Positions 3,250-63,973 of a DNA stretch of 64,000 bases are shown one piece after another. The position numbers and the translations under genes were made by a program. Source of the stretch: Oscillatoria sp. FACHB-1406 (GTDB taxonomy: Bacteria > Cyanobacteriota > Cyanobacteriia > Cyanobacteriales > Spirulinaceae); the NCBI RefSeq assembly GCF_014698145.1, contig NZ_JACJSM010000001.1, positions 88,633 to 152,632 of the forward strand, given 5' to 3'. How positions within the stretch are numbered: position 1 is the stretch's first letter; every line of letters starts with the position of its first letter. The notes beneath the pieces are model-generated. The model was not told the DNA's origin and searched no databases. It saw nothing but the letters and a program-made list of their open reading frames with translations.

Positions 3250-3507
3250 TTACTGAGCCTTAATGCTAACAATTTTACCGCCCATACGATTGATACGTTG
3301 CATTTCTTCGTTCATGCGGCTGTAGGGAACGACGATCGAAATCGTGCTGCTGGAGCGAAACTGATAATTATTGCTGTCGTTGCTGGTATTTTGTTTTAAA
3401 CCTTCAACTTCATAAATGAAAACGCGACCTTTTGCAGGGCTATCGGAGCCTCCAACCAGAGCAGAGCGACCAAGCATTGTTAAAATTCTCCTACTTTGAA
3501 ATGTCAC
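3250..3507 (-). CDS. cpcD: phycobilisome rod-capping linker CpcD (small CpcD-domain protein)
   Basis: 85 aa with a CpcD domain (MLGRSAL...GRVFIYEVEGL...VPYSRMNEEMQRINRMGGKIVSIKAQ). It lies between cpcC1 and cpcE. Confidence 0.85.
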   Translation of the reverse strand: MTFQSRRILTMLGRSALVGGSDSPAKGRVFIYEVEGLKQNTSNDSNNYQFRSSSTISIVVPYSRMNEEMQRINRMGGKIVSIKAQ

Positions 3508-3631
3508 AAAAAAGAGTTAAATCGGGCGATCGAGGGTTAACGAAGCCGTTCCGAGCCGAGAAATTTCAATCTCGCTATCGTAACCGCACGCTAATGCCCC
3601 GATCGCCCGAAGATGTAGTTAATGAAGTTAA

Positions 3632-4510
3632 CTACGCCGGGGTGATACTGGCAACTTTACCGCCTTGGCGGTTAATGATTTGCAGCGTGTTGTTAAGCTC
3701 TTCGTAAGGTACGATCCAAGCTTTGCTGGCACGGCGCACGCGAGGATAACCTTGCTTGCTCATCCCAGCGACTTCAATACGATAGAGGCGACCGGGAGTA
3801 CCAAATGGCGTAACGCCACCGAGAGCGCGACTAGGCGTTCCGCCCGAAGCGCGCGAGCGGGAGGCGACGTAAGCCCAACCGTTACTGCTGTTGGAAGGAG
3901 CCACCACTGAGGAAACGCTATTGCGAGCCAATTCGCCCGCTAAACGTCCACCTTTGCTATTAAGTTGCGCGCGATCGCTATTCGCATAACCGCGATACAG
4001 ACCCAACATCCGCGTAAAGCCAACGGTTCTGTGACCCGTTTGGACTTCAAAGCTATGAATGTAAGGGACGATATTTTCGCCAAAGTATTGGTTGTACTCG
4101 TCCGAATCGATATAAGAATCGATATCGGCATCGTACCCTTCGTTTTCGTAACGATCTAAGTGTTCGATAATTTCAGCTTCACTATAGGGCGCGCGTCCCA
4201 ACAGATGCTTGAAATTAAGCTCGATAACCCGCGATTGGAAGTTGGGGTAGAAGAATTTATTCTTATACAGTTCCGACTTTGCAACGGCACGAACAAACTC
4301 TTTAACGCTGAGGGAGCCGTTCGCCAAGAGCGATTCTGCGCTCGTGAGGCGTTCCGACTTCATCAGGTAGTCGTTTCCGAGGACGTGGCGATAAACAGCA
4401 TTGATGACGGCTTTCGCATCATCTGGACTCCAGTTAGGGCGAAGCTCTAAAGGCTCCATCTCAGCGAAGGCAGAAGTCCCCAACCGAGAGGCTGCGGTCG
4501 TAATTGCCAT
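3632..4510 (-). CDS. cpcC: phycocyanin-associated rod linker CpcC (PBS-linker domain plus C-terminal CpcD domain)
   Basis: 292 aa. The N-terminal PBS linker domain ([47 protein letters not shown]) and the C-terminal YRIEVAG...[25 protein letters not shown] are diagnostic. It is the second of two tandem paralogs. Confidence 0.85.
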
Positions 4511-4548
4511 TCAGTTTTCTCCTTAAGTTATATTGGATTATTCACGCG

Positions 4549-5361
4549 CTAGGCGGGCGAAACCCCTAGCACTTTGCCACCCCGAGCGTTGATTTCTTGC
4601 AACTTGCTCGATAACTGCTCGTAAGGAACGAGGTACTCGAGGTTGCTGCGACGAATTTTTGCCATACGGCCGGGTTTTGGCGCTTGGATGGCCCGAACGC
4701 GGTAAAATTTACCTCGGCTGCCTCCCGAAACGCCGGCAAGCGCTTCTTGGGTAGAGCCAATGAAAACACGAGATGCCGTATTTTGAGCGACTTCGCGCGT
4801 CAGGCGGCCTGCTTGCACCGCGCGATCGCTCGTGGCATAACCGCGATACAGTTGGAACATTCGGCTGAAACCGACCGTTTTTTGACCGCGCTGCGTCTCA
4901 AAGCCGCGATAATACGGCACGATTGAGTCGCCAAAGTTTTCTTGATATTCGAGCGAATCGATGTAAGAATCGATGTCGGCTGCGTATCCCCGTTGATTAT
5001 AAAGATCGGTATGATAAGCGACTTCTGACTGGTCGTAAATAGCTCGTCCCAGCAGGTGCTTGTAGTTCAACTCGATAAAGCGGTTTTGGGGAAGAGTATG
5101 AAAAAACTTATTGCGATAAACTTCCGACTGAGCCACTGCTCGGACGAAATCTTTAACGCTAATGGAACCATTGCGTAATAAAGATTCAGCGCTGGTTAAG
5201 CGCTCGCCTGCCATTAGGTGGTCATTCCCCAAGACTTGGCGATAAACCGCGCGAATCACAACTTCTGCATCTTCGGGAGAATAGTTCGGACGTAGCTCTA
5301 CCCGTCCCGACTCCAGAAACGGTTCAAATCCCAACCGTTGGGCTGCTGCTAAACTTGTCAT
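4549..5361 (-). CDS. cpcC: phycocyanin-associated rod linker CpcC paralog (PBS-linker plus CpcD domain)
   Basis: 270 aa with the same architecture ([16 protein letters not shown]...[20 protein letters not shown]...YRVRAIQ...[25 protein letters not shown]). It lies immediately downstream of cpcA. Confidence 0.85.
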
Positions 5362-5474: not shown

Positions 5475-5963
5475 CTAGCTCAGGGCATTGATAGCGTAAT
5501 CGATGTAGCAGTTAGCTTCAGAGGCAGCATCGCCAGAGAGACCGTGGTTGGATTTGATGTGCTTGAGGGCTTCAACGTACCAGCTAGGAGACAATTCAAA
5601 GGTGCTGTTGATTTCATCTAAGCCAGCAACCAAGTATTCATCCATCGGACCGGTGCCACCAGCGATCAAGCAATAGGTGACCATACGCAGGTAGTAGCCG
5701 ATGTCGCGAGCGCACTTGGCTTTACCTTCCGAAGAAGAAGCGTAGTTGGAACCATCCATTTGGGTGGTGTAAGGGAACTTCTTGTAAACAGCATTGGCTG
5801 CGCCTTCGGTTAAGCTTTGAGCTTTAGAAGCTAAGGCTTTAGCTGCTTCTAAACCAGATTTCGCTTGACGGAGACGACCAAAAGCGACTTGAAGTTCGGA
5901 GGTACTCAGGAAGCGACCTTGGGAATCAGCAGCAGCGACGGCTTCAGTCAAAGGGGTTTTCAT
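5475..5963 (-). CDS. cpcA: C-phycocyanin alpha subunit
   Basis: 162 aa, near-identical in pattern to known CpcA ([29 protein letters not shown]...[71 protein letters not shown]). Confidence 0.95.
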
Positions 5964-6031
5964 AGTTTCAATATCTCCCGATTATTTTGCAAAGTTTTGG
6001 TACAAAGAATCCTCTAAGGTGCAAGCTAGGT

Positions 6032-6550
6032 TTAGCCCACAGCAGAAGCAGCAGCATCAAAGTAGCCTGCGATTTCAGACATTAATTGGCTGCAATCGCC
6101 TTGGGTAATACCGTTGCGATCGTTAGCAATTGCGATCGCGGCATCTTTCATTTTTTGAACGCCAGCAGCAACGGAACCGCCGGGAACGCCCAGAGCAACA
6201 TAGGTTTCGCGTAAGCCATTCAGGCAGCGATCGTTGAGGACACTAGCATCACCAGTGAAGATTGCGTAGGTGATATAGCGCAAGATGATTTCCATGTCGC
6301 GCAAGCAAGCAGCCATACGACGGTGGGTGTAAGCATTTCCACCCGGAGCGATTAATTGAGGCTGTTCGGCAAACAGAGCGCGAGCGGCATTAGCGACGAT
6401 CGTCGAAGAGCTACCGGTGATACGGTTAACGGCATCAATACGTTTGAGGCCATCGCCGACCATCGAGTTCAGCGCGTCGATTTGCGAATCAGAAAGGAAA
6501 TCGCCACGAGCGTCAGCTTGGGAAACCACCCGAGTGAATGCGTCTAACAT
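6032..6550 (-). CDS. cpcB: C-phycocyanin beta subunit
   Basis: 172 aa ([16 protein letters not shown]...[53 protein letters not shown]...[46 protein letters not shown]). It is followed upstream by a ~700-bp leader/promoter region. Confidence 0.95.
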
Positions 6551-7268
6551 CGAATTTATCTCCTACTTGAGCTAAGTTTGAGTTTGGTTTGAAAAAAGGA
6601 GTTCCTCTTGGTCGGGCTTTGCCCTTGTCCCGAGGCAACTTGGCGGTTGGGGTGAAAGCGTATCTTTATCAGTCCGGGATACTCAAGGCTTTTCATTTTC
6701 TTGAGACCGTTTTCTCCTTAAGCCGGGAGAATATCTGACGGTTTCTTAACAAATCCCTAAAAACGAGTGGTTTTATGAGAGAGGTTACGAAAATGCGCGA
6801 GTTGAGATTCAGATTGACTTTGACTGCCTTCGTTTACCCTTCAGATAACTTTTATACAACGCTGTCGAGCTTTTTTTTGTTACATCTTGTTAAGTTTTTG
6901 AGGACGCTGGGTCTTAAACAAATTTAAACTTGACCCCTCGATCTCGCACTCGCTCAAGACTGAACAACTCTCCAAATTGGCAAGCTCGCTGCTCGACCCG
7001 ACATTGAGTAAAGTCGCTTGCGCTCTGCTGTTAATCCTCCTGGCCCGGAATTGTAACGGGCGAGCTTAACGGCTCGGCTCTCGCTGACTTGATACTCCTC
7101 ACAATTGAGGTTAAAGGATTGAGGCGCAAAAGGTATCGATCTTTACAGTTTTCAAAACAACTTAACAAAGCGCAACATAAAGATACGATAGGGCGATCTC
7201 AATGCACGAGAGGCGCGTTGATGATTCGAGCGAATGTGGGGGCAAACGAGTTCAGTCCCCTTCCTTCA

Positions 7269-8507
7269 TCAACCACGGGCGTGCTTTTGGAGAAAATAGC
7301 CCACTAAATAAAGAGAACCGCAGAGAATGACCGGTAAATCGCCTTCAATGGCGACATTTAAACCAGAAAAGAGATCGGGGAAGGTTTGGACGACGACATC
7401 GGGACAAGTCGCGCGGGCAATGACAGCCAGAGCTTCGGGGGGAGCGCTATCGGGGTTGGGAACCGGTACGAGGTACAAGCGATCGCCGGGACGCAGCAGA
7501 GCGGCGAAAATATCGGCTCGATCCTTTGTCGAAAGGATACCCATCACCCAAGTCACGGGAGAATCGAGCGTATTGACGTATTGCCGTAGAGCTATCGCTG
7601 CGGCGGGATTGTGCGCGCCGTCAAGCAAAATCGAGCGTCCCTGCCACCTCGTCCATTGCAATCGCCCCAGCCAGCGGGCGTTTGCCATCCCCGCTTGAAT
7701 CGCGGTTAGGGGAATTTTCCAACCCTGCTGCTGGAGAATTTGTAAACCCGCGATCGCGATCGCGGAATTCATTAACTGAAACTCTCCTAACAGCGATAAT
7801 GAATACTCAATTCCACCATATTCTGCGCGATGTTCGCCCATTTTTCGCGCTGGAGCGACCCAGACTGCCGGACAATTTACGGCGACAATTCTTTCTCGCA
7901 CAACCGCTTCAGCTTCGGGCGGCAATTGACCAACAACCACCGGACAATTATGCTTTAAAATTCCTGCCTTTTCGCGAGCAATATCGGCAACCGTCGGCCC
8001 CAAAACTTGCCAATGTTCGAGACTAATGGAAGTAATTGCTGTTAAGGCGGGTTTATCGCACACATTTGTTGCATCCAAACGTCCGCCCAAACCGACTTCG
8101 ATAACAGCAATATCCACAGATTGCTGCGCGAAATACAACCAAGCAGCAGCCGTAATGACTTCAAATTGTGTCGGACTTTCAGCTTTTACGGCAATCGCAG
8201 CTTTAACCTGCTTCAAAATCCGTTCTAATTCTGTCTTCGCGATCGCTTTGCCATTAACACAAATGCGTTCTGTCCAATCAACTAAATGAGGGGAAGTATA
8301 ACATCCGACGCGATAACCTGCGGCAGTCAGAACGGAGGAGAAATAGGCGCAGACAGACCCTTTGCCATTGCTTCCCGCAATGTGAATAATCGGAAATTCT
8401 TGTTGCGGATTTCCTAAGCCAGCAAGTAATTTCCGAATGCGATCGAGTCCGAGGTGAACGCCAAAGTGCTGTAACGAAGTTAAGATAGAGTCAATCGTGT
8501 CGGTCAT
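7269..8507 (-). CDS. folC: bifunctional folylpolyglutamate synthase / dihydrofolate synthase
   Basis: 412 aa with a Mur-ligase family P-loop (HIAGSNGKGSVCAY) and YTSPHLVDWTERI..NGK, typical of FolC. Confidence 0.85.
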   Translation of the reverse strand: MTDTIDSILTSLQHFGVHLGLDRIRKLLAGLGNPQQEFPIIHIAGSNGKGSVCAYFSSVLTAAGYRVGCYTSPHLVDWTERICVNGKAIAKTELERILKQVKAAIAVKAESPTQFEVITAAAWLYFAQQSVDIAVIEVGLGGRLDATNVCDKPALTAITSISLEHWQVLGPTVADIAREKAGILKHNCPVVVGQLPPEAEAVVRERIVAVNCPAVWVAPARKMGEHRAEYGGIEYSLSLLGEFQLMNSAIAIAGLQILQQQGWKIPLTAIQAGMANARWLGRLQWTRWQGRSILLDGAHNPAAAIALRQYVNTLDSPVTWVMGILSTKDRADIFAALLRPGDRLYLVPVPNPDSAPPEALAVIARATCPDVVVQTFPDLFSGLNVAIEGDLPVILCGSLYLVGYFLQKHARG

Positions 8508-8726
8508 TTCAGTTATCAGTAAGCAGCGATCGGTAAAGCGATTATTATTTTAAATCGAGGGAATAACACCAGTAATCTTGATAGGATTTTTCCCTAAAAG
8601 AAGGCTAAAACCCTTTTTTTTATTGAGGGCTGACAAGAAACACTCATTCAGCTAAAATTCAGAATTGCGCCCAATCCACTTAAAATTGTAAGAGTCCCCG
8701 ATTTTAGAAAGCCTAAAATTAAGACG

Positions 8727-10916
8727 ATGGAATTTTTCGAGAGCGAAAGGTTTAGCGAGATTGTTAGTCGGTGTAAGCATAGCGCGATCGGTAAGCATTT
8801 AGCCAGCGCTCTCTACGTTCATGTAAGCGCCCTTCCCGCGATCGATTTATGCTTGCAGGATTACGAAAAACTCGCTCGCAGCGCTACTGAAGGAGTGCCT
8901 AGCGCTACTCTAGTTAAATTTAACCTCGAGAAACCGACGCTCTCTTATCTTTTTTATCCTGACTTCGATCGCGATCCGCATCCCGCCCTACACGCCAGCA
9001 TTCAAGTCAATTTATTAACTTTAACGGCAACCAGGCGAGATTACAGCACTGTATCCAATTCTCCCATTTTGCATCGCAAAGAAACTTTTGTTTTACCCGA
9101 TTATCCTCACTACGCTCAATTTGCAGAACTGACACGCCAGGAAGAAGCATTAGGATTGCTTGCCAACGCTCGTTTTATTGGCACGCGCCGTCAATGGTTG
9201 CAACGGTTAGCCTTTCATGAAGTCGAAATTATCGACCATCAAGTTATTCAAAATTCAAAATCAACAGATCGAAATGAACAAGATATAGAAGTCATTCAAA
9301 ATTTAATTGTTGAAATTCAAAGCGATCTAGAAGATAGAAGGGAAATTCAAAATGAGGGAATTATAGAAGAAAAAGTCGAACCTTCTGTTACTCTTATTGT
9401 ACCGCCGGTTGAAATTGCGCGCCATCGAGCAGCAATTGCGCGCAAACAGTTATCGCGTCCGACGCGAGTTGTACTAGAAGCGGGATTGTTTGAAGAAGGA
9501 ACGACGTTTTTTGATTATGGATGTGGGTACGGTTGGGATTGCGATCGCATCGCCGAACAAGGCTATACTAGCTCCGGCTGGGATCCCTACTATCGCCCCA
9601 ACGTACCGAAAGTTGCGGCAGATATCGTTAATTTAAGCTACATTATCAACGTTATTGAAGACCCAAGCGAACGTAGAGAAGCGTTAATTAATGCTTGGGA
9701 ATTAACCCAAAAAGTGTTAGTAGTCGCCGCGCAAGTTCTCATCCAAGATTCGTTTAGCGGACAAATTGCCTATGGCGATGGAATTATCACGCGGCGCAAT
9801 ACTTTTCAGAAATATTACGAACAGGAAGAACTAAAATTTTATATCGATCGCGTCCTCGAAGTCGATGCAATTCCGGTGGAGTTAGGGATTTACTTTGTCT
9901 TTCGCGATGCGACGCAAGCGGAAGCTTTTCGCGCTTCCCGATTTCGTTCCCGCGCGACAACACCGCGCATTCGCAAACAAGTCCGTCGCTTTGAAGACTA
10001 CGAAGTCATGCTAGCCCCGCTGATGGCGTTTGTAACGGAACGAGGACGATTGCCGGTTAAAGGGGAATTAATACAAGAAGCGGAGATTTGGCGCGAATTT
10101 GGCAGCCATCGCCGCGCTTTTGATTTAGTGTTGCAAGCGACAGAGGAATCGGAATGGAGCGCGATCGCAGAAAAACGCCGCCAAGACCTTAAAGTTTATT
10201 TAGCGCTTTCTCATTTTGGCAAGCGTCCGAAAGCGAGCGAACTCTCGCCACCCGTAAAAGAAGATTTCAAAGCGTTATTTGGCAGTTACAAACAAGCCTG
10301 TTTGCTTGCAGATTTAATGTTATTTAGCCTTGGCGACTTGCAAAACATTACCGATATTTGTCGAACGAGTCCGGTGGGTAAAAAATTAACAAAAAGTTTT
10401 ACCGTTCATTTCAGCGCTTTAGAAACGCTTGACCCACTTTTGCGGTTGTATGAAGGCTGCGCCAGTCGCACTTTTGGGCGTTTAGAATCAGTGACATTAG
10501 TTAGATTCCATCTCGATCGCCCGCAAATTTCCTACTTATTTTATCCCGATTTCGATCGCGACCCTCATCCCGCCCTAACAACCAGTATGCACGTTGCGCT
10601 CCAAGACCTCCAAGTTTTTTACCAAGAGTACGACGAAGACAATCCGCCCCTCCTCCATGAAAAAGATTTATTCGTTCTGCCCGACTACCCCAACGCCGAA
10701 AAATTCGCAAAATTAACCCAACAAGAGAAAGATTGGGGTTTGCTGGATGACTATCGCGCCATTCGATCGCGTCGCGGCTGGTTGAAGTGTTTGGAAGACC
10801 ATTCTGCGATTCTAAAAAATCACCAATTAACGCGCTGTAAAGATGCCGACCCGTATAAATTAAAACTGTTGCGTGCAGCCGTTAGAACTCGTCAAAAAAA
10901 GCGAAGCCAAACCTAA
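8727..10916 (+). CDS. large class-I SAM-dependent methyltransferase-like protein with an internally duplicated ~100-aa flanking domain; possibly related to the 'DNA phosphorothioation-associated putative methyltransferase' family
   Basis: 729 aa. A central Rossmann MTase core carries motif I FFDYGCGYGWD, post-I SSGWDPYY and motif II ADIVNLSYIINVIED. Residues ~60-165 (LVKFNLEKPTLSYLFYPDFDRDPHPAL...HRKETFVLPDYPHYAQFAELTRQEEALGLL...RRQWLQRL) are repeated at ~565-670 (LVRFHLDRPQISYLFYPDFDRDPHPAL...HEKDLFVLPDYPNAEKFAKLTQQEKDWGLL...RRGWLKCL). The family assignment rests on recollection, not a search. Confidence 0.6.
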   Translation: MEFFESERFSEIVSRCKHSAIGKHLASALYVHVSALPAIDLCLQDYEKLARSATEGVPSATLVKFNLEKPTLSYLFYPDFDRDPHPALHASIQVNLLTLTATRRDYSTVSNSPILHRKETFVLPDYPHYAQFAELTRQEEALGLLANARFIGTRRQWLQRLAFHEVEIIDHQVIQNSKSTDRNEQDIEVIQNLIVEIQSDLEDRREIQNEGIIEEKVEPSVTLIVPPVEIARHRAAIARKQLSRPTRVVLEAGLFEEGTTFFDYGCGYGWDCDRIAEQGYTSSGWDPYYRPNVPKVAADIVNLSYIINVIEDPSERREALINAWELTQKVLVVAAQVLIQDSFSGQIAYGDGIITRRNTFQKYYEQEELKFYIDRVLEVDAIPVELGIYFVFRDATQAEAFRASRFRSRATTPRIRKQVRRFEDYEVMLAPLMAFVTERGRLPVKGELIQEAEIWREFGSHRRAFDLVLQATEESEWSAIAEKRRQDLKVYLALSHFGKRPKASELSPPVKEDFKALFGSYKQACLLADLMLFSLGDLQNITDICRTSPVGKKLTKSFTVHFSALETLDPLLRLYEGCASRTFGRLESVTLVRFHLDRPQISYLFYPDFDRDPHPALTTSMHVALQDLQVFYQEYDEDNPPLLHEKDLFVLPDYPNAEKFAKLTQQEKDWGLLDDYRAIRSRRGWLKCLEDHSAILKNHQLTRCKDADPYKLKLLRAAVRTRQKKRSQT

Positions 10917-10939
10917 AAATTGTTTGAAAGCTCATTAGC

Positions 10940-11118
10940 GTCAACTTAAGGTGAAACACTTAGCCCGCCAGGAACTCAAGTTCCTGCCCGATCGCTGAAA
11001 CCCGTTGAAACGGGTTAAATACATTTGAATTTCCCAGTCCTATAAAGAGGACTTGAGTTATTAGCCTTGGGTTTGAACCCAAGGCGGGCTAGGTGAGCAG
11101 GTTTAAGCTTAAGTTGAC
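10940..11118. repeat. ~180-bp element bounded by inverted repeats (GTCAACTTAAG...CTTAAGTTGAC and TTAGCCCGCC...GGCGGGCTAG), enclosing four perfect 18-20-bp hairpins
   Basis: Hairpins CAGGAACTCAAGTTCCTG (10969..10986), AACCCGTTGAAACGGGTT (10999..11016), AGTCCTATAAAGAGGACT (11036..11053) and CCTTGGGTTTGAACCCAAGG (11066..11085). The element sits in the spacer between the convergent MTase-like gene and amt. Confidence 0.6.
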
Positions 11119-11213
11119 ACCAATGAACATTGTTATGCCCTCTTCGGGAATCGTGAAAAATTAATGAGAATTGGTATAAGAACGGTATCAGTCCGCTCGT
11201 TATCCATTGTCAA

Positions 11214-12626
11214 TTACTCGACAGTTTCTCGCTTGCTGGCATAGGCAGAGGAACCGCCCAAGAAATCTTCCTCGCTATATCCTTCTTCTCCGTGAACGGG
11301 AACGTCAATCCCTTGCGTTTCAACTTCAGGATGGACGCGCAAGGGCATAATAGCTCCTAAAATTTTGAGTAGAACGAACGTGCCGACTGCTGCAAAAATG
11401 TAGGTCGCTGCAACCCCAACAAATTGCTCCCAAACCTGTACGGGATTGCCAAAGAATAAGCCATTATCGCCAAATTCATTGACGGCTTTAGTGGCAAACA
11501 AACCCGTCAACATCGCACCTACTGTTCCGCCAACGCCGTGAACGGGATAGGTATCGAGGGAGTCGTCGAACCGAAGTTTGGCGCGCCAACTGACGGCGTA
11601 GAAGCAGCAAACAGCCGTAATCGAACCAATCATAATCGCACCGATGGGAGTCACGAAACCAGCAGCGGGCGTTACGCCAACGAGTCCGGCAAGAAATCCG
11701 CTGGCGATGCCAATGGCGGTTGGTTTGCCGCGCAGCACCCATTCTAAAAGAACCCAGGTCAGTCCTCCAGCAGCAGTCGCGACGAGGGTAGCGACGAAGG
11801 CAACAGTTGCTAGCGCGCCCGCCCCTAATGCACTACCCGCATTAAAGCCGAACCAACCGAACCAAAGCAACCCGATTCCGAGAAGGACAAAGGGGACGTT
11901 ATGGGGCGGCGTTTGGCGATCTGGAAAGGTGCGACGCGGCCCTAAAACCCAAGCGGCGACAACGGCAGAAACCCCCGAACTGATATGAACGACGGTTCCT
12001 CCGGCGAAGTCTAACGCGCCGAAACTGCCAATCCAACCTTTACCCCAAACCCAGTGGGCGAGGGGGGAATAGATGAAGGTTGACCACAGCAAAACGAACC
12101 AAAAATAAGCTTTAAAGCTCATACGTTCGACGATTGCGCCGGAGATGAGTGCGGGGGTGATGATGGCGAACATAAGCTGGTACGCCATGAACACTTCGTG
12201 GGGGATGGTGGGCGCGTAGCCGACGGGATCGGGCGCATCGAAGGCTACACCGTTCAGGAAAAGCCAATTCAAGCTACCGATGAAGGGATTGGCGGTGAAG
12301 GCGGGATCTGCTCCAGGAGTGATGGAGGTGGGGGCAAAGGCGAGGCTGTAACCCCAGAAGACCCAAGTTACGCCGACGATAGCCATTAGAATGAGGCTCA
12401 TCATCATGGTATTGAGGACATTGCGCGATCGCACCAATCCGCCGTAGAAAAAGGCTAAGCCGGGAGTCATCAACAACACCAACGCTGAAGAGACGAGCAT
12501 AAAGGCCGTATCGCCCGTATCGATTTTTGGGGCAGCGGCGGCAGCCTCCTGGGCCCAAGCCGCTTCAGTAAACGGCCCGCCCATTAGTCCGAGGGCAAGC
12601 AGCAAAACGATTAAAATTTTTGCCAT
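11214..12626 (-). CDS. amt: ammonium transporter (Amt/MEP family) with cleavable signal peptide
   Basis: Amt-family TM protein (DFAGGTVVHISSGVSAVVAAWVLGPRR..., WFGWFGFNAGSA). The ORF track starts at 12677 (MTPAYFFNL...). The internal ATG at 12626 (MAKILIVLLLALGLMGG...AWAQEAAAA) gives the signal peptide typical of cyanobacterial Amt1 and is preferred. The longer form is not excluded. Confidence 0.85.
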   Translation of the reverse strand: MAKILIVLLLALGLMGGPFTEAAWAQEAAAAAPKIDTGDTAFMLVSSALVLLMTPGLAFFYGGLVRSRNVLNTMMMSLILMAIVGVTWVFWGYSLAFAPTSITPGADPAFTANPFIGSLNWLFLNGVAFDAPDPVGYAPTIPHEVFMAYQLMFAIITPALISGAIVERMSFKAYFWFVLLWSTFIYSPLAHWVWGKGWIGSFGALDFAGGTVVHISSGVSAVVAAWVLGPRRTFPDRQTPPHNVPFVLLGIGLLWFGWFGFNAGSALGAGALATVAFVATLVATAAGGLTWVLLEWVLRGKPTAIGIASGFLAGLVGVTPAAGFVTPIGAIMIGSITAVCCFYAVSWRAKLRFDDSLDTYPVHGVGGTVGAMLTGLFATKAVNEFGDNGLFFGNPVQVWEQFVGVAATYIFAAVGTFVLLKILGAIMPLRVHPEVETQGIDVPVHGEEGYSEEDFLGGSSAYASKRETVE

Positions 12627-12920
12627 ACAATTGTTCTTCTTTGTCGATCTGAGATTAAAAAAGTAGGCAGGTGTCAATAACCCTGCAACAGCCCGCAGTA
12701 ACCTTCCAGCACGAGCCCCCCCGCGCGACTCCTGCGGGTTTCATCGTTCGTAACGAGTTACGGTATATTGAGAAATTTTGGAGGATTTTGATAGGTGCAG
12801 CGCGTAAAATCAATACGCGAGAACACTAACGCTCTTCCTCGCGCTGAAAACTTTATTGATGTCAGCCGCTAGCTAGGCCAACTTCAAGAGTCATTCCATC
12901 AATTCCTGCAAGGCAATTCT

Positions 12921-12934
12921 GTATCTTAGGATAC
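12921..12934. promoter_or_regulatory. candidate NtcA binding site GTATCTTAGGATAC (GTA-N8-TAC) within the palindrome tGTATCTTAGGATACa, in the amt upstream region
   Basis: Perfect match to the NtcA consensus GTAN8TAC. amt1 is a canonical NtcA target in cyanobacteria. A TAN3T -10 box at the canonical 22-nt spacing is not obvious on either strand. Confidence 0.4.
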
Positions 12935-13098
12935 AGTTAGGCTTTTCTTAAGCTTGCAAGGGTGGAATTCTTCCGCGCTCGAATGTTGCGAAATATTTAA
13001 TATTGCAGCGAAATGATATAAGGGTAACGATGAGTGTGATAACTTCTATTGATGTTAAATAAAGTTTAGCGGTCTCGAAGATTAAGGAGGGGAATACC

Positions 13099-13317
13099 TT
13101 GAATTTACAGCCTTCTCAACCGATGGATTCGTTCTCGCGCGAAGATATTAGCGAGTATGTTGCAGAGCTTCAACTCCACATGACGCTGCACGCTCGCCAT
13201 TTGCTGCCTAACTTGAGTGAAGTCTGCGACAGCCGCCAACAAATGTTGCAGGAAACTCAAGCCTACGCGGAAAAGTTAGTTTCCCGCCAGTCAGTTTTAG
13301 GTTTTCGTTCTCTGTAA
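13099..13317 (+). CDS. small hypothetical protein (72 aa) with strong Shine-Dalgarno AAGGAGG 8 nt upstream of a TTG start
   Basis: ORF preceded by ttaAGGAGGggaatacc. No recognisable domain. Confidence 0.3.
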   Translation: MNLQPSQPMDSFSREDISEYVAELQLHMTLHARHLLPNLSEVCDSRQQMLQETQAYAEKLVSRQSVLGFRSL

Positions 13318-30102: not shown

Positions 30103-32067
30103 TTATTCTGCTGTAGAAACTTTCCCATCCCCCGTTACCGCCGTCGAGAAAGTGTGTCCGCCCGCTTCTACTTTTAACGTTCCTACCTTCCAGCCCAAGG
30201 AAACAATCGACGGCCCGGAAACGACGCGATAGAGATCGAAATGCTGCAACCAATCGTAAACTTCGCCGTTACGTTCAATAATAGGAAGTTGTTCGAGAGC
30301 GCGCCAAGTTAAATTAAGGGTATTGCTATCACTCCCTTTTAACCCCACCGTTCCTTCCTTTAAACGAGCAAGATTTAACTCTCCCTTACGCTTCACCGCT
30401 TCCTTAAAACGAGCGTAATCATTCCCCTCTACGAGATCGCCCGTTTCTAACGCAAAACCGGCTAGTTCTTGACCCTTTGGGGTGGCTTTTATCCATCGTT
30501 CTGCCCCGTAACCGCGCGTCGCTTTCTTTTCCGGTATGGGAACGTCTGTATAATCATTAAGTTGAATCGGACGAATCGCGATCGCAACTTTTTCTAATCG
30601 CACAAACCAAATTCCCTCTTCAATCTCCATCTTCGCTGTTTTCGGCAGTTGAAAAAAGAACGGTCGGTTGGCCGGACGCAACCAAATTAAGAGATTGCGG
30701 AACTGTCCGATTTGGTCGCCCGGATTTTTCCCCGGTTTCACGCCTTCCTCGCCCGTATTGGCAACAAAAAAGTCAACGCCGCGCTGAGAATTATTGGCCA
30801 TGATTTTAAATGGCCCGACATCGCCATCGGCAAACCCAGAAACAACGCTGCCCATTTGATACGTCCGCCCGAAAAACTGAGTTTCCCAATACGCCGGTTT
30901 ATCCTCCCCGTCCTGCTTCCAATTTTCATAAATTGGTTTCGTCGCCATCATCTCGACGGGTTGCTTGAATTGCTTTCGCGCCAAGGCAACGACAGCTAAG
31001 GGCGGTCGGTAGCGACTGGTAATCATGTAGAGGGTATCGAGTTCGGGTTCGGGGTTGGGCTGGGGAACATCGCCGAAGTAGAGGTCGAAGGTACGCGCCG
31101 CAGAAGAACCGTAAACGACGTTAGCACCGCCGTAATCGCGTTTTGTCGGCCCGCCCCAACCGCCGCGACGATATTTAAGGGCAGCAGCGGTTGACATCCA
31201 ATCTAAGGCGGCTTTGGCGATCGCTTTGACTTCGGAGTCTTTGGCGAAGTCGTAGAGGTTGAGGTAGGGGGCAAAGGTGTGACTGTGGTAGTTTTCTGAG
31301 TCCCATTCGCCCATCCCGATGTGGTATAGCGCCCAAACGTAACGCTGGATTTTTTGCTTGTAGAGTTGGCGGACGGCTTCGTTTCCGGTTTCTTCTGCCA
31401 TGAGGTAAACGGAGGTTTCACGCATGGCGCGCAGGTTATCGGTGTTGCGCCCGTCTACCCACAATCCGCGCCGCTGAATCGACCAGTCTTGTCCGCTGCC
31501 ATCACCGTTTCCGTAAAGGGGATGGGGACGTTCGAGGGGGTCGCGTTCCGTCCATTTTTTGGCACCGTCAAACATTCGTTGTTTGTAGGCGGGGTTGAGG
31601 AAGGAACCGAAGAGGAAGTATTTGCGAATTTGACCTTTGAGGGTGAAGGAGAAGTAGTAGTCAATGCCGTCGGTGTGGGCGTGTTCTGGGGTTTGGGAGT
31701 CTTCTTGTTGGAGAAAGGCGATCGCGCGTTCTTTATTTCCGGCGAGAAAGTCGAACATAGCGCGAGGATAAGATCGTTTCTCGTTTTCTTGGGTCGTGTT
31801 CCCATAGGTTTTGGGGTTGCTGTAAAGCTGGATAATGGCAAGCGCGCGCTGCTCGAATTCGGCTTCGAGTTCCGGAGTCCAAGGGTTTTGCAGTTTTTGT
31901 GGAATGTCGGCCGGTTGGAGATTGAGAAAAGGCCCGCGATCGGAGGGACGCGGGACGATAGCAGCCGAATTTGGGGAAGAAGGGGAGAAATTGGGAGCTA
32001 TGCAACCGCAAAGCGCGATCGCGAGTGCAATGGCTGTATTCTGAATTCTTAATGTCAGCTTCCTCAT
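30103..32067 (-). CDS. large secreted hypothetical protein, probable lipoprotein (654 aa); possible polysaccharide-acting enzyme-like fold
   Basis: N-terminal signal peptide ending ...IALAIALCGC (lipobox-like), Trp/Tyr-rich body and no confident domain. Confidence 0.55.
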   Translation of the reverse strand: MRKLTLRIQNTAIALAIALCGCIAPNFSPSSPNSAAIVPRPSDRGPFLNLQPADIPQKLQNPWTPELEAEFEQRALAIIQLYSNPKTYGNTTQENEKRSYPRAMFDFLAGNKERAIAFLQQEDSQTPEHAHTDGIDYYFSFTLKGQIRKYFLFGSFLNPAYKQRMFDGAKKWTERDPLERPHPLYGNGDGSGQDWSIQRRGLWVDGRNTDNLRAMRETSVYLMAEETGNEAVRQLYKQKIQRYVWALYHIGMGEWDSENYHSHTFAPYLNLYDFAKDSEVKAIAKAALDWMSTAAALKYRRGGWGGPTKRDYGGANVVYGSSAARTFDLYFGDVPQPNPEPELDTLYMITSRYRPPLAVVALARKQFKQPVEMMATKPIYENWKQDGEDKPAYWETQFFGRTYQMGSVVSGFADGDVGPFKIMANNSQRGVDFFVANTGEEGVKPGKNPGDQIGQFRNLLIWLRPANRPFFFQLPKTAKMEIEEGIWFVRLEKVAIAIRPIQLNDYTDVPIPEKKATRGYGAERWIKATPKGQELAGFALETGDLVEGNDYARFKEAVKRKGELNLARLKEGTVGLKGSDSNTLNLTWRALEQLPIIERNGEVYDWLQHFDLYRVVSGPSIVSLGWKVGTLKVEAGGHTFSTAVTGDGKVSTAE

Positions 32068-61849: not shown

Positions 61850-62836
61850 TTAACTTAAGGATTCTGCTAGCATCTTTTTGACGTAATTCGGCAAAGCAAA
61901 GGCAGCTTGGTGAATTTCGGCATTGTAGTATTGCAAGTTGTTCTCGCGCTCAAAAGCTGCAACGCTTTCAGAACTCACTTTACGAGGATCGATCGCACCG
62001 TTTGAAGCGAGTTGAAAACTCCAAATTCCAGAAGGATAAGTCGGGATTTGAAACAGTAAAACGTAAACTCGATCCGCTCCGAAAATCTTTTTTAAACAGG
62101 CATTTAGTTCTGCAAAAACTGTTTGATGAAAGGCAGGAGATTCAGCTTGCGTTACGAGTAAACCATTGGGCTTGAGCGCGCGCTGGCAATTGCGATAAAA
62201 TTCAGCAGAAAAAAGTCCTTCGGCTGGCCCGACTGGATCGGAACCATCGATAATAATTAAGTCGTAACTTTCGGCAGCAGCATCGGCAATAAATTTGAGT
62301 CCGTCGCCAACTTGAAGATCGAGTTTGGGATGGGAAAAACTTTGGGAGAGGGTGGGAAGATGGAGCTTGCAAGCTTCGATGACGTTTGCATCGATTTCTA
62401 CCATCACGACTCGCTCGATTTCGGGATGTTTAAGAATTTCTCGCACTGTCCCGCCATCACCGCCGCCGATGACGAGAACATCTTTAACAGCACCGTGGGC
62501 TAAAATTGCGGGATGCGCGATTGTTTCGTGGTAATGCGCTTCGTCCTTCTCAGTACACATGACCATGTTATCGATTGTCAGTGTTTTCCCGTAGCCATAG
62601 GTCTCAATAATCCGAACTCGCTGAAATTCTGAGGTTTTATCGTAGAGGATTTCACCCGTGTAGCGTAGGGCAAGAGCTTGGTTTTCATCGGCATCGGTAA
62701 ACCAATATTGGCGATCGCGCGGAGAGGTTTCTGCATTTGCCTGCATTTTACTGTCCGGCTGGATTTGAATCGAGTCCATATGCGCCCCTTTGCAAAAAAG
62801 TTGAGATAGGGTTATAAGATACCGCAATTGCGGCAT
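61850..62836 (-). CDS. speE: polyamine aminopropyltransferase (spermidine synthase)
   Basis: VLVIGGGDGGTVREILKH...VVMVEIDANVIE...DLIIIDGSDPVGPAEGLF. The N-terminal ~20-30 aa of the ORF are probably not translated. Confidence 0.8.
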   Translation of the reverse strand: MPQLRYLITLSQLFCKGAHMDSIQIQPDSKMQANAETSPRDRQYWFTDADENQALALRYTGEILYDKTSEFQRVRIIETYGYGKTLTIDNMVMCTEKDEAHYHETIAHPAILAHGAVKDVLVIGGGDGGTVREILKHPEIERVVMVEIDANVIEACKLHLPTLSQSFSHPKLDLQVGDGLKFIADAAAESYDLIIIDGSDPVGPAEGLFSAEFYRNCQRALKPNGLLVTQAESPAFHQTVFAELNACLKKIFGADRVYVLLFQIPTYPSGIWSFQLASNGAIDPRKVSSESVAAFERENNLQYYNAEIHQAAFALPNYVKKMLAESLS

Positions 62837-62924
62837 TCTTGGATCGGGGGGAGACAGAGTGAGGGGGTGATGGGGTGCGCGATGAATTCAACGATTAAGT
62901 CAAATTTCTTAATTCTTAATACTA

Positions 62925-63071
62925 ATTCCCAACTCCCAACTAATAGCTATAGCAGTTTTCACCTAGATGAGGTACACCCAGCGGGCGAATACCATTCGCC
63001 CCGTCTCGAAATCCGCGCCCCTACCGATTTGATTTTTGGAACTGTACCTCACGCCAACGAAAAACGCTATA
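62925..63071. repeat. degenerate, TIR-less relative of the MITE-like element at 29828..30064
   Basis: It shares GCTATAGCAGTTTTCA(a/c)(t/c)T(g/a)GATGAGGTACA and GTACCTCACGC(a/c)(c/a)A(t/c)GAAAAACGCTATA with the 29828 element, with a different central hairpin (GGGCGAATACCATTCGCCC). Confidence 0.5.
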
Positions 63072-63109
63072 TTCATTATTCATGATTCATCATTCATTAT
63101 TCATTAAAA

Positions 63110-63973
63110 TCAGGGCAGCCAACGAGGGCGCATTCCGGTAAGGGGAAGCTCAACTAAGTCGGGCTGAGATTTTTCGTCGGGGACGGCGGAAGGAGCAATA
63201 AGCAGCCAAAGTTTGCTGGAAACGATCGCGTCGCCAGAATTCGTTCTTAATAAGGCTCTATCGTTGAGGTTAGAATCGACAATGATGCGATCGAATAAAA
63301 CCCCAATTCCATCGGGGGCTAAACTCATCTGTATATCTCGATAGTCGGGCAGCTTAACAATGGGCGCGCCCTTTGCTTTTTCTAAATCGATCGCGGCAAA
63401 ATAGGGTTTTTCGAGATATTTTTCGCCTTCGGAAACTTCTGTTAGCAAGCAATACAAAATCGTACTCGAAGGGCTGAATTGACAGTTAACAATTGAGCCT
63501 TTCACGTCGGCAACTTTGCGCTGCGTGCCAAGAGCGTCTACTACATAAAGCGATTGGACGTAGCGCAATTTCGGATCGTTTTGATTGAAATTTACGAAAA
63601 CGGCAGCGGAACCGTCTCGATTGAAACTCAGAATTCTGCCAAATTGCGGTAAGAAATCTAGAGCTTTTTCTTGTTCGTTGAGGGGAAAAACAGCAATTCC
63701 TTCACCTTTAGCGGCGACAAGGGTTTGACTGTCCGGCGCGATCGCAAAATCGCCGCTCGGTGTATCGTTAAGGGGTTGAATTTCGTTATTCTCTCGTTTA
63801 ATCCAAAGTTTGGTATCAGCAGGATTTTTGCGATTGATACGCTGAATGACGATGTTTTTGCCATCGCGAGAGAGATCGAATTTGAGGTTTTGATAGTCTT
63901 GATTATTTACGACTCGTTCGATACTGTTAGCAGTTGGTTCTGCGGTGTCTAAGCCCGTAGGAACTTCGTACAA
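63110..63973 (-). CDS. hypothetical protein, possibly beta-propeller-like; reading frame stays open to the window edge, so the 5' end may be truncated
   Basis: 287-aa ORF. The frame upstream of Met 63973 has no stop through base 64000. Confidence 0.5.
   Translation of the reverse strand: MYEVPTGLDTAEPTANSIERVVNNQDYQNLKFDLSRDGKNIVIQRINRKNPADTKLWIKRENNEIQPLNDTPSGDFAIAPDSQTLVAAKGEGIAVFPLNEQEKALDFLPQFGRILSFNRDGSAAVFVNFNQNDPKLRYVQSLYVVDALGTQRKVADVKGSIVNCQFSPSSTILYCLLTEVSEGEKYLEKPYFAAIDLEKAKGAPIVKLPDYRDIQMSLAPDGIGVLFDRIIVDSNLNDRALLRTNSGDAIVSSKLWLLIAPSAVPDEKSQPDLVELPLTGMRPRWLP

Follow-up and report, generated by a model that had tools for sequence, protein, structure and literature searches.

Introduction

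What can be the role of a lone gene whose family is named after a DNA modification system, when no part of that system is encoded around it? The question is raised by a stretch of 64,000 nucleotides from the cyanobacterium Oscillatoria sp. FACHB-1406 (contig NZ_JACJSM010000001.1, positions 88,633 to 152,632; referred to here, at its full length, as the window), which carries a gene for a 729-aa putative methyltransferase (the MT gene; Table 1). A sequence-only reading of this DNA had taken the product for a class-I S-adenosylmethionine (SAM)-dependent methyltransferase-like protein flanked by two copies of a repeated domain (termed X here), had brought up the family label 'DNA phosphorothioation-associated putative methyltransferase', and had seen no partner genes nearby. 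The gene is an intact member of TIGR04096, an uncharacterised family of class-I SAM-dependent methyltransferase-like proteins, and relatives within that family are accessories of phosphorothioate (PT) DNA-modification systems of both the Dnd and the Ssp type. For the product of the window gene itself we tentatively favour a role in trans, as an accessory methyltransferase of PT systems that is directed at DNA, a reading to which we give somewhat less than an even chance.

A member of TIGR04096

The open reading frame (ORF) starts with an ATG, includes its stop codon within its coordinates and is full length. Its product has a single match in NCBIfam, to TIGR04096 (dnd_rel_methyl), with a score of 843.6 bits (E 4e-254) against a cut-off of 150, and the family label given in the sequence-only reading is indeed the name that NCBIfam gives to this model. 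Profile positions 1-476 of 478 were aligned to aa 229-702 of the protein; as the hit is confined to this region, the model corresponds to the catalytic core, the helical region and the C-terminal copy of the repeat. The protein is 100% identical to an NCBI protein of Oscillatoria sp. FACHB-1406 (P0001) whose record bears the family name; membership is already part of the existing annotation of the gene, and the named family is functionally blank. The Pfam family Methyltransf_23 scored 18.5 bits on the window protein, below its gathering score of 27, and is matched by 40/67 family members (best E 2.5e-8). A PADLOC scan of the protein matched no model. An exhaustive search of cluster representatives (50% identity) returned 3638 clusters of relatives with E<1e-3, including 609 with E<1e-30. 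The literature search found no paper on TIGR04096 or on the window protein, and the TIGR04096 methyltransferase is not treated in recent reviews and comparative papers on PT systems; one PT comparative paper mentions in passing a methyltransferase beside PT genes in Fischerella, and suggests that it may act independently.

Phosphorothioate genes beside the relatives

Outside the cyanobacteria, dnd or ssp genes were found within 10 kb of the MT gene at 10/11 family loci, Massilia being the sole exception. The Dnd-type arrangements are MT-dndBCDE in Pseudoalteromonas, dndBCDE-MT in Arthrobacter, and an MT gene beside dndA and dndBCDE in Nonomuraea, where it is co-oriented with the adjacent cysteine desulfurase gene. 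The Ssp-type arrangements include a Rhodobacteraceae plasmid with the order sspD-C-B <> sspA-MT, in which MT is co-oriented with sspA, and four alphaproteobacterial plasmids (Methylobacterium, Azospirillum, Microvirga and Falsirhodobacter) with the order sspD-F-G-H(FtsK-like)-MT; in Methylibium the MT gene is found near an FtsK-like gene. PT systems are common in cyanobacteria (PMC8569181, PMC12914056), and 10 cyanobacterial loci of the family are likewise PT-linked within 10 kb (plasmid pSYSM of Synechocystis PCC 6803, Trichormus variabilis, two Leptolyngbya, Picosynechococcus, Scytonema hofmannii, Nostoc sphaeroides, and the loci L012, L014 and L031). In Trichormus, Leptolyngbya, Scytonema, Nostoc and L012 the MT gene is divergent from sspB-C-D. 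A group of approximately 22 cyanobacterial loci had no PT gene within the flanks at hand. For the relatives, the family is thus an accessory of PT systems of both types.

The locus on pSYSM (L001, record 16138-42162) encodes a two-copy homologue (WP_011153563.1, SGL_RS00125) in an island that also contains a small HNH gene, a DUF433 gene, a DUF4276+AAA pair (read as PARIS-like), two toxin-antitoxin pairs, and genes for a cysteine desulfurase, a 458-aa HNH protein and DUF4007/SspB. Its SspC-like gene retains only the first 563 aa and adjoins a LAGLIDADG gene, and no SspD is encoded within 12 kb; the ssp module looks degraded, with the MT gene intact. Genes for Uma2-family putative endonucleases adjoin the MT gene at several other loci (L019:5980-6687, L024:9383-10075, L044:9300-9869 and 12339-12974, L004:3915-6989); in Crocosphaera the Uma2 gene lies 13-40 nt upstream of MT on the same strand, and since Uma2 genes are very abundant in cyanobacteria this may be coincidence. 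Six Crocosphaera loci (L017-L022) also carry, 1.5-3.5 kb upstream of MT, a gene for a 690-aa SMC/AAA_23-type ABC ATPase (e.g. L019:3168-5240) that is 22-27% identical to DndD, and hence weakly DndD-like; it may belong to the DndD/CxC clade or be unrelated, and neither DndC nor DndE was detected there.

The clade of the window protein

In a neighbour-joining tree built on the core-to-X region, the window protein and six relatives were monophyletic with a bootstrap of 100% of 200 replicates. The six come from a tar-biofilm metagenome-assembled genome (MAG), Lusitaniella coriacea, MAG SBLK, the P01_E01 MAG, a Spirulina MAG and Spirulina subsalsa. Identity within the clade is 62-71%, and this clade of solitary genes is old. 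The PT-linked cyanobacterial copies group apart (bootstrap 68%). The Crocosphaera proteins form a clade of their own (bootstrap 100%) and the tandem forms of ~1000 aa were grouped at only 58%; both are encoded without recognisable PT genes, save for the weakly DndD-like ATPase. In MAG SBLK the solitary MT gene lies on one contig and a complete sspB-C-D-GmrSD-sspA cluster on another, so a solitary MT gene need not mean a PT-free genome. In FACHB-1406 itself, SspD was not among the best 120 of nearly 8000 matches to the Trichormus and SBLK SspD queries, a listing that says nothing on presence or absence. On the SBLK contig with the cluster (JAGHZQ010000098.1, L042), tblastn located a full SspC-like gene and a GmrSD-like gene at ~5779-9252 and 10869-13151, where the deposited calls have gaps; the annotation thus understates the completeness of this ssp cluster.

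Origin and asymmetry of the two X domains

The internal duplication described in the sequence-only reading is real, and its length had been underestimated: the repeat unit is ~165-170 aa, not ~100 aa. A BLASTP comparison of the N-terminal 230 aa with the C-terminal 310 aa aligned aa 12-175 to aa 541-703 with 75/164 identical residues (46%), one gap and an E value of 9e-47. The peptides that had been quoted from the translation are all present at the places given, and the two copies share SYLFYPDFDRDPHPAL (aa 73-88 and 602-617) and FVLPDYP (aa 121-127 and 649-655). In nucleotide sequence the copies agree at only 71% over their best stretch of 97 nt, and many of the differences are synonymous. 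The duplication is therefore old, selection accounts for the identical peptides, and a recent gene conversion from one copy to the other is rejected on the same grounds.

Comparison across the family indicates where the N-terminal copy came from. The family is built on a unit of the form [MTase core - helical domain - X domain] (MTase, methyltransferase), and members fall into length classes of ~480 aa (one X), ~650-730 aa (two X) and 800-1050 aa. In the 1020-aa relative P0003, aa 7-307 match aa 235-545 of the window protein (core and helical domain) with 49% identity (E 2e-100), and the order is core, helical domain, X, then a second core, second helical domain and second X; its first MTase is without D351, T359-F360-Q361 and R232/R239. 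Full tandems of the form [MTase-helical-X]x2, of ~960-1050 aa, were seen in other cyanobacterial proteins besides P0003 (P0005, P0007, P0008, P0064, P0105 and others); they keep both X motifs, their first MTase is without the family-invariant residues, and the loci sampled were solitary in 4/4 cases (L025, L026, L030, L046). Among 45 relatives with an N-terminal extension the segment before the first X shrinks stepwise whilst keeping the C-terminal parts of the MTase and helical domains: it matches window aa 225-535 in relatives of 960-1054 aa, is a core with internal deletions in those of 880-920 aa, and is only the end of the helical domain (~aa 460-535) in those of 750-810 aa. The DNA upstream of the window ATG holds no remnant of a first MTase/helical module. 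The absence of anything before X in the window protein, taken with the stepwise shrinkage in its relatives, identifies the N-terminal X as the survivor of a first whole unit. The window protein is thus a single-chain pseudo-dimer, produced by a tandem duplication after which the first unit lost its MTase and helical domains and kept its X. The sequence-only reading had seen the N-terminal copy as an added flanking domain, and the family comparison replaces that view with the remnant of a whole-unit tandem duplication.

The two copies have not been conserved alike. The motif NPP[IV]LHRKE is near-invariant in one X per protein, which is the sole X of one-copy forms and the N-terminal X of two-copy forms, and stand-alone viral X proteins also keep a motif of this type. 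In the C-terminal X of cyanobacterial two-copy proteins the Arg has been lost, with E, Q or Y instead (NPP[ILV]LH[EQY]K[ED]), and in that of proteobacterial two-copy proteins the motif is degenerate (LYFKE, LFLKS). The second unit of the window protein has kept all of the invariant MTase residues, whereas the X motif within it no longer has the key Arg. Such complementary decay, of all but X in the first unit and of the X motif in the second, is as expected if one-copy proteins are homodimers in which X serves the partner's site; the N-terminal X with its NSPILHRKE motif probably serves the single MTase site of the window protein, and one-copy relatives may do likewise across a homodimer. With the motif retained so asymmetrically, the two copies are unlikely to be equivalent modules that recognise a symmetric target, and the earlier suggestion of equivalent domains for a symmetric or bipartite site is not upheld.

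Fold and conservation of the domains

An AlphaFold2 model of the full-length protein, built from a 96-sequence alignment, has a pLDDT of 92.1 and a pTM of 0.75. Within the linker, pLDDT falls below 50 for aa 203-224, and the net charge of the linker is -8. Invariance was scored on alignments of 96 and 67 sequences, the window protein included. All of the invariants of the lid and core are present in the window protein (A236, R239, S243, D263, G265, C266, G267, D271, D286, P287, V301, N308, R316, D351, G352, T359, F360, Q361 and R441); the lid has R232, R239 and S243. Mean pairwise identity among the cyanobacterial proteins is 74% for the core, 58% for the N-terminal X, 63% for the C-terminal X and 14% for the linker, and all of the domains are under purifying selection.

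The class-I assignment made in the sequence-only reading is borne out by the motifs, by the Methyltransf_23 matches across the family and by Foldseek, which matched the core to class-I MTases with probability 1.0 (E ~1e-4, identity 10-17%); the matches include Trm9, GSMT (glycine-sarcosine methyltransferase), O-methyltransferases, CcbJ and ToxA. Against PDB sequences (phmmer, profile) the core gave motif-I-level matches only, and its likeness to TehB-type chalcogen MTases is weak, covering ~28 residues of motif I. DNA MTases are missing both from the 50 best structural matches listed and from the sequence-profile matches in PDB. The motif (D/N/S)PP(Y/F/W) was not found after strand 4, where the sequence is VNLSYIINVIED (VNLSY), and the sole NPP/NSP motifs of the protein are in the X domains, outside the Rossmann fold. 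The PCQ and ENV motifs of C5-MTases are absent from the translation, and no C5-MTase is among the 50 best structural matches or the PDB profile hits. The helical domain matched the homing-endonuclease-associated repeat PF18780 weakly (E 0.001, two stretches; 5/67 members). The X domain showed no match to a known target-recognition domain and no fold similarity to solved structures of the sulfur-binding domain (SBD) of PT-dependent nucleases. The recognition role given to the duplicated domain by the sequence-only reading was not sustained: X bears no mark of restriction-modification target recognition and has no solved relative, and the core is unlike those of DNA base MTases.

X as an autonomous module

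The X domain is also found on its own. A tblastn search of a phage collection found one record with X, the 485-kb uncultured phage LR745208.1 (L041), in which a 190-aa stand-alone X with the motif NKPILHRKE (L041:7947-8519) is followed ~0.4 kb downstream by a small MTase ORF (L041:8961-9638). This ORF matches Methyltransf_23 (E 8e-5) and the family-specific core profile (E 5e-7, in a small database), and it shares with the window core the lid, WDP, NVIxxxER and DG..R.T motifs; the two phage genes are a split X and MT pair. A TnpB/Cas12f-like gene (3406-4860) and an RNA ligase gene lie near the pair. A degenerate DNA pattern of NPP[IV]LHRKE matched seven IMG/VR contigs, which include three full-length members, a 171-aa stand-alone X (L059) and one contig with core and X in separate ORFs. 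On a contig of this set (L054) X has a Cys/His-rich N-terminus with no Pfam match; a by-eye likeness of that N-terminus to HNH was dropped in the absence of such a match. One BFVD structure matches X (E 9e-7). As X is fused to or paired with MTases, occurs in DNA-modification islands and in phages, and accompanies a possible DNA-binding helical repeat, it is probably an autonomous targeting or substrate-binding module, for which DNA is the most likely target.

Weighing the explanations

The reading that we tentatively prefer, an accessory methyltransferase of PT systems directed at DNA, would have the window protein act either on DNA that carries PT or together with a PT module whose genes are at another place in the genome. 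It would not be the conventional base methyltransferase of a restriction-modification pair, its gene would be kept as a lone chromosomal gene throughout the clade, and its N-terminal X would cooperate with the single active site. That the protein could act in trans is made plausible by a member of the clade, SBLK, whose MT gene and ssp cluster are on separate contigs. The methyl group may go to the PT linkage, to a base next to it or to an intermediate of the sulfur relay, given a core that resembles small-nucleophile MTases, a cluster of conserved basic residues at the site and a family that accompanies Dnd as well as Ssp. A number of observations weigh against this reading. No published methyltransferase assay for any TIGR04096 member was found in the literature; no Dnd or Ssp homologue was found in the window by tblastn with 27 queries (cysteine desulfurase, DUF4007/SspB, SspC, SspD, DndB/C/D/E, SspH-like, GmrSD and HNH); and the clade is solitary in 7/7 cases, each gene lying amid different housekeeping genes. 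In Foldseek the core resembles small-molecule and tRNA MTases, not DNA MTases. X has no solved structural relative, nothing in PDB sequence searches and no relative of known function, and the X, core and helical domains are about neutral in net charge, so that DNA binding is not evident from composition. The match of the helical domain is weak, and a DNA-binding repeat there is hinted at only. Some of the IMG/VR 'viral' contigs may be host islands. A bolder form of the same idea, in which X would be a new reader of the DNA backbone or of PT and the enzyme would methylate the PT sulfur or an adjacent non-canonical DNA position, is improbable. The methyl group might then be a second backbone mark, or PT might be erased via a labile S-methyl triester, and in the window clade the target, reached in trans, would be PT that an unlinked module has written; this would explain the association with both Dnd and Ssp, the small-nucleophile-like core, and phage X (with or without MT) as a possible counter-defence.

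The uniformly solitary clade (seven members, bootstrap 100%) amid unrelated housekeeping genes, together with the lack of any PT gene in 64 kb, makes a PT-independent role quite possible, and a domesticated orphan enzyme with no partner, whose methylation target might be DNA, RNA or a metabolite and whose role might lie in regulation or stress tolerance, is the rival that we take most seriously, although we hold it to be rather unlikely. The Crocosphaera clade and the ~1000-aa tandems, which have no recognisable PT genes bar the weak DndD-like ATPase of six loci, the purifying selection on every domain, and viral contigs with MT or X and no PT genes are all consistent with it. They have to be set against the full ssp cluster that SBLK carries elsewhere in its genome, the PT linkage of 10/11 non-cyanobacterial and 10 cyanobacterial loci, and the frequency of PT systems in cyanobacteria noted above. 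An enzyme of the sulfur relay, which would S-methylate a persulfide, thiocarboxylate or free sulfide to control or detoxify the sulfur flux from cysteine desulfurase or PAPS-reductase-like enzymes, with X as a protein-interaction domain, has little probability in our estimate. It would suit a core that is structurally nearest to small-molecule MTases, the position of MT beside, and co-oriented with, the sspA or dndA cysteine desulfurase gene in the Rhodobacteraceae plasmid and in Nonomuraea, and the fact that the components common to Dnd and Ssp are sulfur-mobilising enzymes. The likeness to TehB-type chalcogen MTases points the same way but does not extend beyond motif I; moreover, a multi-domain pseudo-dimeric layout of 480-1000 aa is atypical of a small-molecule MTase, and the phage X and MT pairs have no sulfur-relay genes nearby.

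A conventional orphan DNA base methyltransferase, with the two X copies as target-recognition domains for a bipartite or palindromic site, would account for two homologous domains that bracket one catalytic core and for a solitary gene like those of Dam- or CcrM-type orphan MTases. The chance of this is slight: the catalytic motifs of such enzymes are missing (VNLSY in place of (D/N/S)PP(Y/F/W) after strand 4, and no PCQ or ENV), DNA MTases do not figure among the 50 best structural matches listed or the PDB profile matches, X matches no known target-recognition domain, and the X copies are not equivalent, with one-copy relatives having a single X. Slighter still is the chance of a non-catalytic relic or regulator, a protein that would only bind SAM or DNA (as a sensor or repressor of PT genes) or a gene decaying after the loss of its partners. 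The divergent placement of MT and sspB in many cyanobacteria is a layout common for regulators, the first MTase module of the tandem forms has clearly decayed, and the gene has the lowest GC in the window; nevertheless, every family-invariant core residue is intact in the window protein, the core is its most conserved part (74%) in a full-length frame, and the solitary clade is old, its identity being 62-71%.

Genomic surroundings and feature positions

The window is part of the core chromosome, with genes (by Pfam) for LytR, the cpc phycobilisome operon, a folC-like Mur ligase, MT, amt, an EcsC-like protein, PGI, porins and CpeS and, further along, RF-1, RpoA, SecY, ribosomal proteins, MreB and HemD. 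As the sequence-only reading had stated, the MT gene stands between folC-like and amt genes with no dnd, ssp or restriction genes nearby (tblastn, Pfam). These folC/amt neighbours are shared by 0/28 of the cyanobacterial loci. The MT gene has the lowest GC (0.455) and GC3 (0.415) of the 35 window ORFs (z -2.0 and -2.3). The last two ORFs of the window (61850-63973) are, like the MT gene, low in GC (0.46). Two ORFs on the reverse strand, of 654 aa (30103-32067) and 287 aa (63110-63973), have no Pfam match at E<=1e-5.

Between the MT stop (10916) and the amt stop (11214) lies a nested inverted-repeat element of ~205 nt (10927-11131), unique in the window. It is built of a 31-nt outer pair of arms (81% complementary), a 13-nt inner pair and three perfect hairpins of 8-10 nt. 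An Rfam search of 8400-11300 gave a sub-threshold match to Acido-Lenti-1 only (29.3 bits against a gathering score of 37). The element may have arisen as a MITE-like insertion, or it may serve as a bidirectional terminator or encode a structured RNA.

Table 1. Positions in the window of the MT gene, its putative promoter and the segments of its product.
Feature	Position	Strand	Basis
Promoter-like CTGACA-17-TAAAAT, 10/12 consensus, ~70 nt upstream of ATG; weak	8630..8658	+	Consensus scan; site count not above shuffles
MT gene, 729-aa TIGR04096-family putative methyltransferase	8727..10916	+	ORF list (translation), NCBIfam, NCBI match
N-terminal X domain, aa 5-176, remnant of first MTase-helical-X unit	8739..9254	+	Outside TIGR04096 model
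Motif NSPILHRKE, aa 111-119, window version of NPP[IV]LHRKE	9057..9083	+	Family comparison
Linker, aa 177-228, acidic, poorly conserved, partly disordered	9255..9410	+	pLDDT, identity, charge
Class-I (Rossmann) SAM-methyltransferase core, aa 229-410	9411..9956	+	Invariant residues, Foldseek, Pfam
Basic N-terminal lid of MTase core, ARHRAAIARKQLSRP	9417-9461	+	
Motif I FFDYGCGYGWD, aa 261-271	9507-9539	+	
GWDP motif, in SSGWDPYY, aa 282-289	9570-9593	+	
Core motif ADIVNLSYIINVIED, aa 298-312	9618-9662	+	
Core motif RRNTFQKYY	9792-9818	+	
All-helical domain, aa 411-540, between core and C-terminal X	9957..10346	+	AlphaFold2 secondary structure
C-terminal X domain, aa 541-703, copy within TIGR04096 model	10347..10835	+	NCBIfam, internal alignment
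Degenerate motif NPPLLHEKD of C-terminal X	10641-10667	+	
Basic C-terminal helix, aa 704-729, net charge +7	10836..10913	+	AlphaFold2 helix aa 709-728, charge count

Significance and comparison with known systems

TIGR04096 is large, and its members accompany the only DNA-backbone modification systems known. What is new here is the domain anatomy, the tandem-duplication origin, the asymmetric retention of the X motif, the occurrence of stand-alone and split forms in viral sequences, and the grouping of solitary copies into monophyletic clades; these additions are useful leads and not the discovery of a new system. Tandem duplication with complementary decay predicts which residues, and which copy of X, matter. 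The existence of whole cyanobacterial clades without adjacent PT genes, and of phage X alone or with a small MTase, suggests a separable activity, and a tractable homologue of the window gene is at hand on plasmid pSYSM of Synechocystis PCC 6803. Should PT-DNA prove to be the substrate, PT epigenetics and defence would gain a new layer; otherwise the window gene would be that of an ordinary orphan methyltransferase.

A methyltransferase is not among the defined components of the Dnd or Ssp systems (PMC8092258, PMC10853773). Relatives of the window protein are encoded inside or beside the clusters of both Dnd (DndABCDE) and Ssp (SspABCD, SspFGH) in Gammaproteobacteria, Alpha/Betaproteobacteria, Actinomycetota and Cyanobacteria, whereas the window has no component of either and its MT gene is not clustered with dndBCDE or sspBCD. 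Compared with TIGR04096 as a family, the window protein is a high-scoring, end-to-end member with the same motifs and invariant residues; it differs in that the model comprises MTase, helical domain and X only, leaving the N-terminal X (aa 5-176) outside, and in that its locus lacks the dnd/ssp neighbourhood behind the family name, which the loci of 20 relatives have. The SBD readers of PT-DNA (SBD-HNH proteins such as ScoMcrA and SprMcrA) offer a conceptual parallel only, that of autonomous PT-associated domains of ~160 aa fused to different effectors, with X carrying conserved Pro, Tyr and Arg. With the class-I small-molecule and tRNA MTases (the Methyltransf_23 clan; Trm9, glycine-sarcosine methyltransferase, TehB) the core has in common the Rossmann fold, a GxGxG motif I, an acidic residue after strand 2 and a hydrophobic strand 4 followed by a helix, but the likeness is remote and the window family has its own basic lid (RHKTAIxRxxLSRP), its DGxxTxRNTFQKYY motif and its helical and X domains. 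Orphan DNA MTases (Dam, CcrM and cyanobacterial solitary MTases) resemble the window gene in being solitary chromosomal genes from defence-tied families that are kept across a clade, and the window protein differs from them in having none of the catalytic motifs of a DNA base MTase.

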